From Enterobacteria phage GiZh, in sequence record NC_054903.1: a stretch of DNA of 64,000 nt. The stretch is one strand, 5' to 3'. The notes under the pieces are model-generated. The model saw only the letters and a list, made by a program, of their open reading frames with translations. It had not been told where the DNA came from and made no database searches. The translations under genes were made by a program, and so were the position numbers. This document shows positions 18,617 through 19,322 of this stretch, piece by piece (the first letter of the stretch is position 1; each line of letters opens with the position of its first letter).

Positions 18617-18629
18617 TTTATTCTCCTCG

Positions 18630-18680
18630 GTAGTTGATAGGGTAATAGTATCACTACCCTATCTAAAAGTAAACTTATTT
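18630..18680 (-). promoter_or_regulatory. early-promoter/stem-loop cassette (PeSL-like)
   Basis: Core TAATAGTATCACTAC flanked by inverted repeat gataggg/ccctatc; gtaaac 18669-18674. Confidence 0.5.
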
Positions 18681-18908
18681 TTTACGAAAAATTGATTTAT
18701 TTTCTGCTGCCCATTTTTCAATAACTGCAGCAGGACCAGTAACAACAATTTTATCACCGTAATCTTCTGCGGCGAGTTGACCGAAATTATCTAATGCATC
18801 ACGAAGAACTCCATGAGGCATTTCACCCATTTTATCTTTCTTGCCGGTGTAAATAAACTCAACTTTTACATCAGAAGATTCAGCGATAAACTCTTTGAAA
18901 GTTTTCAT
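18675..18908 (-). CDS. internal-protein-like (capsid-targeting leader)
   Basis: Start placed at MKTFKEFIAE then SSDV (track ORF extends to 18974); about 77 aa. Confidence 0.6.
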   Translation of the reverse strand: MKTFKEFIAESSDVKVEFIYTGKKDKMGEMPHGVLRDALDNFGQLAAEDYGDKIVVTGPAAVIEKWAAENKSIFRKK

Positions 18909-18934
18909 TTTGATTTCCATTTGGTTTTGTTTTG

Positions 18935-18990
18935 ATAGAGTAATAGTATCACTACTAAAACCCTGTGTAAACAACTTTGTGAAATTATTT
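18935..18990 (-). promoter_or_regulatory. early-promoter cassette (PeSL-like)
   Basis: Same core; gtaaacaactttgtgaaattattttaaa shared with copy at 19262. Confidence 0.5.
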
Positions 18991-19242
18991 TAAATCTTCT
19001 AATCGTTTCTTCATCTTAGAACCATTTTTAGCAATTTCTCCTGCATCTGAGCATAATGCTAAAAGCGCTTTAACTTTAGTTTGGTCTCCTTTAAAAGATG
19101 AAGGATCGACTGCAGCAGCAAGTTCTTTAATACGAGAGAAAAGACGCTCAGCTTCAGCTAAAGCCATTCCAAGCTTTACTTCCATACCGTGGGAAGATTC
19201 GGTGATAGTAGTTTTTGTAGCAAACTCTTTGAAAGTTTTCAT
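18985..19242 (-). CDS. internal-protein-like (capsid-targeting leader)
   Basis: 85 aa; MKTFKEFATKTTITE then SSHG; AGGA upstream of ATG. Confidence 0.65.
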   Translation of the reverse strand: MKTFKEFATKTTITESSHGMEVKLGMALAEAERLFSRIKELAAAVDPSSFKGDQTKVKALLALCSDAGEIAKNGSKMKKRLEDLK

Positions 19243-19261
19243 TTTATTTTCCTAATTAATT

Positions 19262-19322
19262 TTGATGAGATAATAGTATCACTACCTCATCAACGTGTAA
19301 ACAACTTTGTGAAATTATTTTA
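19262..19322 (-). promoter_or_regulatory. early-promoter/stem-loop cassette (PeSL-like)
   Basis: Same core flanked by inverted repeat ttgatgag/ctcatcaa; gtaaac 19297-19302. Confidence 0.5.

Follow-up and report, generated by a model that had tools for sequence, protein, structure and literature searches.

The ip5 and ip6 internal-protein genes at the 57B–trna.4 locus of a T6-like Tequatrovirus and their probable anti-defence role

The internal proteins (IPs) of the T-even phages have been described since 1994, and the idea that they counter host defence was published three decades ago and has been partly tested. In T4, Ip1, Ip2 and Ip3 each specifically inhibit a different GmrSD-family type IV restriction enzyme that attacks glucosyl-hmC DNA, and none of the three protects against the target of another (PMC12373910). 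IPI (IPI*) is injected and blocks the GmrSD enzyme of E. coli CT596, and IPII and IPIII are inhibitors of GmrSD-ECOR21 and GmrSD-ECOR17, respectively. T2 and T6 are without IPII and IPIII and are restricted by both GmrSD-ECOR17 and GmrSD-ECOR21 (PMC12373910). The internal proteins interact with gp22 and carry propeptides of 10–19 residues (review of Black's work, PMC9026906). In the T4 IPIII leader, targeting depends on residues 4 and 7 and processing on residues 8 and 10, and in T4 ten leader residues are sufficient to package foreign proteins (PMC9026906).

The genes for these proteins occupy two polymorphic loci, 57B–trna.4 and denV–e. In the account of Repoila et al. (1994) given in PMC2839356, IP loci have conserved flanks of ~70 bp that contain a T4 early promoter and an overlapping inverted repeat; their reading of the polymorphic IP locus is also cited in PMC12373910. 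The mobile PeSL (promoter-early stem-loop) regulatory cassettes of RB49/phi1-type phages are likewise short conserved units of early promoter and stem-loop that flank small variable genes and mediate modular shuffling (PMC2839356, PMC4122927). The authors of PMC2839356 regard the cassettes of the T-even IP genes as analogues of the PeSLs rather than homologues, since they are built on the T4 early promoter.

Here we examine two short genes in a 64-kb stretch of phage DNA, which we refer to as the window. The window belongs to a T6/PST-like Tequatrovirus: the region of the locus shares 99.6% identity with Escherichia phage JLBYU24 and ~98% with T6 and Yersinia phage PST. The original prediction, made from the sequence alone, placed here two small ORFs that begin with MKTFKEF and continue into an I-x-E site. 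Both are present, on the minus strand, and we identify them as ip5 and ip6, which belong to the polymorphic set of T-even internal-protein genes and lie at the 57B–trna.4 hyperplastic locus (Table 1). Each matches a protein family over its full length, PHROG 3499 being an internal head protein (Ip5) and PHROG 8111 an internal virion protein (Ip6). The T6 record names the genes Ip5, with the note "replaces ipI", and Ip6, and the PST record names them IpV and IpVI; in T6 and PST they have the same position, flanking cassettes and neighbours as in the window. Ip5 also occurs in T2, RB70 and RB15. A longer version of ip6, a 99-aa ORF with a TTG start, was rejected, as it passes through cassette B and the orthologues begin at the MKT methionine.

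Table 1 Coordinates of the features discussed (window positions unless a comparison sequence is named)
Feature	Coordinates	Strand	Description
ip5	18985..19242	-	85 aa; PHROG 3499, 1.2e-49, 1-85/85
Ip5 leader/propeptide	19198-19242	-	residues 1-15, MKTFKEFATKTTITE; ITE at 13-15
ip6	18675..18908	-	77 aa; PHROG 8111, 3.3e-51, 1-77/77
Ip6 leader/propeptide	18879-18908	-	residues 1-10, MKTFKEFIAE; IAE at 8-10
Rejected TTG-start form of ip6	18675-18974	-	99 aa
RBS and leader DNA of ip6	18874-18918	-	compared with that of ip5
RBS and leader DNA of ip5	19193-19252	-	compared with that of ip6
Gene 57B, upstream border	19315..19770	-	Pfam Acb1 (anti-CBASS phosphodiesterase) 2.6e-60; gp57B in T6 and PST
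trna.4, downstream border	18431..18616	-	61-aa predicted membrane protein; PHROG 1692, 6e-35
Cassette A	19260..19330	-	-35 TTTACA 19301-19296; extended -10 TGATACTAT ending 19273
Hairpin of cassette A	19262-19293		14 bp, spans the -10 box
Cassette B	18930..19000	-	-35 TTTACA 18971-18966; -10 TACTAT 18948-18943
Cassette C, before trna.4	18632..18702	-	GTTTAC 18674-18669; -10 TACTAT 18650-18645
Hairpin of cassette C	18636-18663		12 bp, across the -10 box
Shared last codons of Ip5 and 57B	18985-19000; 19315-19330	-	part of the repeat
T4 late-promoter consensus box	20368..20375	-	TATAAATA, inside gene 1, upstream of 57A-57B-ip5-ip6
T4 late-promoter box, perfect	16477-16484	-	TATAAATA, 37 nt upstream of the ATG of the leader-like ORF
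Leader-like ORF	15967-16440	-	157 aa; PHROG 2280 ('unknown function')
ip4	10632..11105	-	157 aa, MKTYQEFITE followed by AA; PHROG 3155 (internal virion protein) 6e-102
denV	11115-11531		
Lysozyme e	11591-12085		
Gene 21, prohead core serine protease	48233..48871	+	Pfam Peptidase_S77 1.5e-111; expected cutter at I-x-E
Gene 22, scaffolding core protein	48902..49711	+	Pfam T4_CASP 5.2e-90; expected leader docking partner
tRNA cluster comparison	16500-17700		against JLBYU24 (L043), PST (L001) and T6 (L002)
T2 ip5 and ip7 (L040)	1156-1791		after 57B
RB69 ORF127c (L041)	1438-1719		Ip5 homologue between e and denV
Ip6-like small proteins after 57B	L030 3453-3686; L005 3453-3656; L021 3453-3662; L023 3770-3976		T4-like contigs

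Both proteins are widespread. Searching with the mature part alone (tblastn), we found Ip5 in 493 phage records, of which 226 hold the ~54% identical homologues of RB69-like phages, and Ip6 in 229. The mature part of Ip5 is 100% identical in T6, and Ip6 is identical to the PST protein and ~95% identical to that of T6. A word-indexed search of 5.8 billion proteins returned close Tequatrovirus relatives only, some of them named Ip5 or Ip6 at source.

The N-termini of the two proteins have the form of capsid-targeting leaders. Applying the criteria of PMC9026906 (a length of 10–19 residues, and positions 4 and 7), we found that both ORFs show the leader type M-K-T-[FY]-[KQ]-E-F, with an aromatic residue at 4 and Phe at 7, and that both leaders end in the gp21 cleavage motif (L/I)-x-E. 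Ip5 thus reads MKTFKEFATKTTITE followed by SSHGMEVKLG...LEDLK, and Ip6 reads MKTFKEFIAE followed by SSDVKVEFIY...IFRKK. The Ip5 leader is of the same type as that of T4 IPI (MKTFKEF...ITE), at 15 aa and 19 aa, respectively. The diagnostic positions are strongly conserved: M1, K2, E6, F7, I8 and E10 are invariant in Ip6 orthologues down to 73% identity, and I13, T14, E15 and the following SSHGMEV are invariant in Ip5 orthologues, one Ip5 variant having a short 10-residue leader, MQTYQTFITE. Because two further (L/I)-x-E triplets lie inside helix 1 of Ip5 (LAE at 28–30 and IKE at 38–40), its exact mature form is uncertain. A six-frame scan of the whole window for the leader pattern found ip5, ip6 and only one more gene, ip4.

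The window also encodes the machinery on which such leaders would act, namely the gp21 protease and the gp22 scaffolding protein, beside the portal gp20 and gp23. By analogy with T4, this gives good support to the packaging, cleavage and injection of Ip5 and Ip6. The capsid-targeting sequence (MKTFKEF...) would dock both proteins on the gp22 scaffolding core during prohead assembly, and gp21 would then cut after the Glu of I-x-E, E15 in Ip5 and E10 in Ip6; on the T4 precedent, both packaging and cleavage at these residues are strongly expected. The cleaved mature proteins, each of ~7.5 kDa and so close in size to mature T4 IPI (7.5–8 kDa), would remain in the head, leave it with the DNA and enter the next host. 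A literature search for functional or virion-proteomic data on Ip5 and Ip6 found none beyond Silas et al. 2025 (PMC12373910).

The leaders themselves appear to be exchanged. Compared with their T6 counterparts, the two genes differ only in the Ip6 leader, which is of the ip5/ipI type, MKTFKEFIAESS, in the window and in PST and reads MKTYQEFIAETA in T6 and most orthologues. Over 31 nt that take in the ribosome-binding site and leader, ip6 and ip5 are 94% identical, which points to leader conversion between the two adjacent genes in the window phage and in PST.

Two other genes in the window deserve mention here. The first, ip4, is the third leader-bearing gene and marks the second IP locus, beside denV and the lysozyme gene e; it equals PST IpIV in length and position. 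The content of this second locus is IpIV and IpIII in PST and ipII and ipIII in T4. The other gene is the leader-like ORF, which occurs in 510 phage records; the 25 of these that were listed all annotate it as a 'hypothetical protein'. It begins MKSYAQFLNEAVLNE followed by ASS, a capsid-targeting-like leader with two L-x-E sites. Its orthologues keep the pattern (MKSYAEFLTE followed by QSS in Mosigvirus, MKFKEFLAE followed by ASS in Jiaodavirus), such that a leader-like N-terminus with L-x-E sites is conserved in three genera; the gene is also preceded by a perfect T4 late-promoter box. This ORF may be an unrecognised internal protein that is packaged and processed by gp21.

The original prediction also held that each of the two genes lies behind its own promoter/stem-loop cassette. 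Our analysis bears this out and adds a third cassette, before trna.4. The three cassettes form a direct repeat of ~70 nt upstream of ip5, ip6 and trna.4, and in all three the T4 early-promoter shape with extended -10, GTTTAC-N14-GTGATACTAT, is matched perfectly. Allowing up to three mismatches, this pattern has 9 matches in the window, all on the minus (early) strand, against 0.76 expected. Cassette A, which is nearly identical to the T4 cassette preceding ipI, has a 14-bp hairpin of -15.5 kcal/mol (z = -4.1), and cassette C has a 12-bp hairpin of -16.4 kcal/mol (z = -4.3); the inverted repeat of cassette B is degenerate and chimeric (-13.2 kcal/mol, z = -3.2). The hairpins are not canonical terminators, as the intrinsic-terminator scan found none and no U-tract follows them, which sets these cassettes apart from the PeSLs. 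An Rfam search of positions 18300–19500 gave a single chance match (E = 0.5).

The cassettes begin inside the upstream genes, cassette A within the last codons of 57B and cassette B within those of ip5 (DLK-stop). This explains the common D-L-K-stop ending of the two proteins: 57B (...ADDLK) and Ip5 (...LEDLK) both finish in the codons GAT TTA AAA TAA, which are part of the repeat. In this arrangement a T4-type early promoter would drive each of ip5 and ip6. Late read-through from upstream is likely too, and the late-promoter box inside gene 1 is a possible source of such transcripts during prohead assembly.

The order of genes at the locus is gene 1–57A–57B–ip5–ip6–trna.4–trna.3–trna.2–tRNA cluster, with 57B and trna.4 as the conserved borders; trna.4 is annotated as Trna.4 in T4, T6 and PST. 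In T4 the order is the same except that ipI alone stands where ip5 and ip6 are here, so the earlier statement that one IPI occupies this locus in T4 is correct. Since gene 57B matches Acb1, the IP locus adjoins a known anti-defence gene; in several phage records 57B is labelled 'RNA ligase' or 'hypothetical'. At the other end, otherwise near-identical phages differ in the tRNA cluster, both in tRNA content and in homing-endonuclease genes, with segB in T6 and PST and a segD-like gene inside the cluster in JLBYU24.

Comparison with other phages shows that the locus is exchanged in modules. The T4 cassette between ipI and trna.4 consists of the left half of window cassette B and the right half of cassette C, with the junction in the core GTGATACTAT. 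Across T4, T2 and 36 metagenomic or isolate loci, the inverted-repeat arms are either matched, forming perfect hairpins, or mismatched, these chimeric forms lying at module junctions. Downstream of 57B, the 36 related loci contain from zero to three leader ORFs, whose mature parts fall into 15 or more unrelated families; in one contig ip6 is the only such gene, and in another ip7 is. In T2, ip5 and then ip7 follow 57B, and in RB69 the Ip5 homologue ORF127c (54% identity) lies between e and denV, that is, at the other IP locus. The ip5 module can thus be found at either IP locus and with differing partners. These patterns fit the recombinational shuffling model of Repoila et al. (1994; summarised in PMC2839356). 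The ~70-nt promoter/inverted-repeat cassettes would also be the sites of recombination through which the locus gains and loses ip modules.

The mature parts of Ip5 and Ip6 had been described as unrelated to each other, and a BLASTP alignment of the two proteins indeed joins only their leaders (residues 1–12 against 1–17). They also differ from the characterised internal proteins: aligned against a six-sequence database that included T4 IPI, IPII and IPIII, T2 Ip7 and window Ip4, their mature parts gave a best E of 0.67, and hence no match to an internal protein of established function was seen. T4 IPII and IPIII resemble Ip5 and Ip6 in having a capsid-targeting leader and an I-x-E site, the leader being identical to the T6-type Ip6 leader MKTYQEFIAE, but differ from them in lying at the denV–e locus and in their unrelated mature parts. 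Pfam and NCBIfam scans of Ip5 and Ip6 returned nothing above noise, and a sequence search of the PDB gave no match (best E = 0.76).

Predicted mature Ip5 has 70 aa and a pI of 9.2. Predicted mature Ip6 has 67 aa and, unlike the basic internal proteins of T4, is nearly neutral (pI 6.5). The AlphaFold model of Ip5 is an antiparallel two-helix hairpin (pLDDT 71), and that of Ip6 is a small ferredoxin-like domain of beta-alpha-beta-beta-alpha-beta order (pLDDT 81). A fold search with the Ip5 model retrieved only generic or designed helical hairpins (E > 0.4), and a search of BFVD with Ip6 retrieved, besides Ip6 itself, two small, distant phage proteins. Both predicted folds are of a generic kind, and neither yields a functional match.

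Relatives of Ip6 were sought further by running a HMMER profile of the Ip6 alignment exhaustively against 1.84 billion representatives. Of the seven matches, five are small phage proteins that belong to the Ip6 family and mostly bear the leader; the other two are repeat proteins, which we regard as spurious. One 78-aa protein, which was recovered by this profile search and agrees with the BFVD fold matches, aligns to the C-terminal two-thirds of mature Ip6 with 33% identity (pairwise E = 4e-7). This homologue, together with a profile search that yields only small and mostly leader-bearing phage relatives, points to a small, phage-only superfamily of internal proteins to which Ip6 belongs and which spans several Tevenvirinae lineages. 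In other T4-like contigs, leader-bearing proteins of 68–78 aa directly after 57B share with Ip6 the C-terminal motif GP-x3-I-x2-W-x3-N.

What might the mature proteins do? T4 IPI and Ip5 occupy the same locus behind the same upstream cassette, and we infer from the T4 internal proteins that Ip5 and Ip6 would be injected and would act against host defence. The candidate role put forward in the original prediction, that of injected anti-defence effectors, had been proposed for this locus in earlier literature, and it matches the labels Ip5/Ip6 and IpV/IpVI. The most likely target of mature Ip5 and Ip6 would be a host defence directed at the glucosyl-hydroxymethylcytosine DNA as it enters, with a GmrSD-family enzyme as one of several options. 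Taken as a whole, we consider it probable that ip5 and ip6 encode packaged, gp21-cut and injected proteins with a probable anti-defence function, and that the genes are swapped by means of their cassettes. Several observations count against this reading: T2, which has ip5, and T6, which has both genes, are restricted by GmrSD-ECOR17 and GmrSD-ECOR21 (PMC12373910), ip4–10 gave no reproducible inhibition in a published GmrSD screen (PMC12373910), mature Ip6 is nearly neutral, and the predicted folds offer no hint of function.

Within the anti-defence reading, the target may not be a GmrSD enzyme. A tentative alternative is that Ip5 and Ip6 are packaged and injected yet counter another early-acting system, such as a modification-dependent nuclease or a non-nuclease defence, or contribute to host takeover. 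When ip4–10 of T4-like phages were screened against the active members of a GmrSD panel, no reproducible inhibition was seen (PMC12373910 section 10, Supplementary Fig. 9), and for this reason the two proteins may act outside the GmrSD family. The predicted folds of Ip5 and Ip6 differ from each other and from that of IPI*, the neighbouring gene 57B/Acb1 counters CBASS, which is not a restriction system, and Alt, a T4 protein packaged by means of a capsid-targeting sequence, is an enzyme of host takeover rather than an inhibitor of restriction (PMC9026906). On the other hand, all three internal proteins with an assigned target, T4 Ip1–3, act on GmrSD enzymes. Moreover, the panel sampled 15 groups of a family that is far more diverse (PMC12373910), so that its negative outcome for ip4–10 is weak evidence. 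That Ip5, Ip6 or both neutralise a defence outside the GmrSD family is possible, but we would not expect it.

Ip5 and Ip6 might instead be mainly structural or accessory parts of the head core, with a part in prohead assembly or DNA condensation and no specific anti-defence target. T4 IPIII mutants assemble heads more slowly and have a smaller burst size, and each internal protein is present in ~360 copies per T4 head (PMC9026906); mature Ip5, moreover, is basic. Several observations make such a role improbable. The T4 internal proteins are dispensable on laboratory hosts (PMC9026906), and Ip6, besides being neutral, is absent from many phages that assemble the same head. Close relatives exchange the whole locus, which holds ipI in T4, ip5 and ip7 in T2, and ip5 and ip6 in the window, and such wholesale replacement is the pattern of arms-race cargo rather than that of a structural part. 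It is very hard to credit that the leaders are relics that hitch-hike with the cassettes and that Ip5 and Ip6 are ordinary, unpackaged early proteins of the cytoplasm. In favour of this reading, leader DNA is exchanged along with the cassette, the ip6 leader of this phage and of PST appears to have become one of the ip5 type, and both genes have predicted strong early promoters. Against it, the targeting and cleavage positions do not vary among orthologues whose mature parts differ at 25% of residues, and the ten residues sufficient in T4 (PMC9026906) lead one to expect packaging of any leader-bearing protein in a phage with gp22 and gp21.

The reading of Ip5 and Ip6 as injected anti-defence proteins adds no new kind of object, because the genes, the logic of the leaders, the cassettes and the anti-defence hypothesis are already in the literature and in annotation; ip5 and ip6 are named and widespread. 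The two proteins turn up very often in Tequatrovirus isolates, both therapeutic and environmental. As internal proteins are delivered with the DNA, they are able to act before any phage gene is expressed. If their target lies outside the GmrSD family, virion-injected internal proteins would be a general route for the delivery of anti-defence factors and not a dedicated anti-type-IV toolkit. The targets of Ip5 and Ip6 would explain part of the differences in host range among T2-, T4- and T6-like phages, and they could reveal further defence systems.
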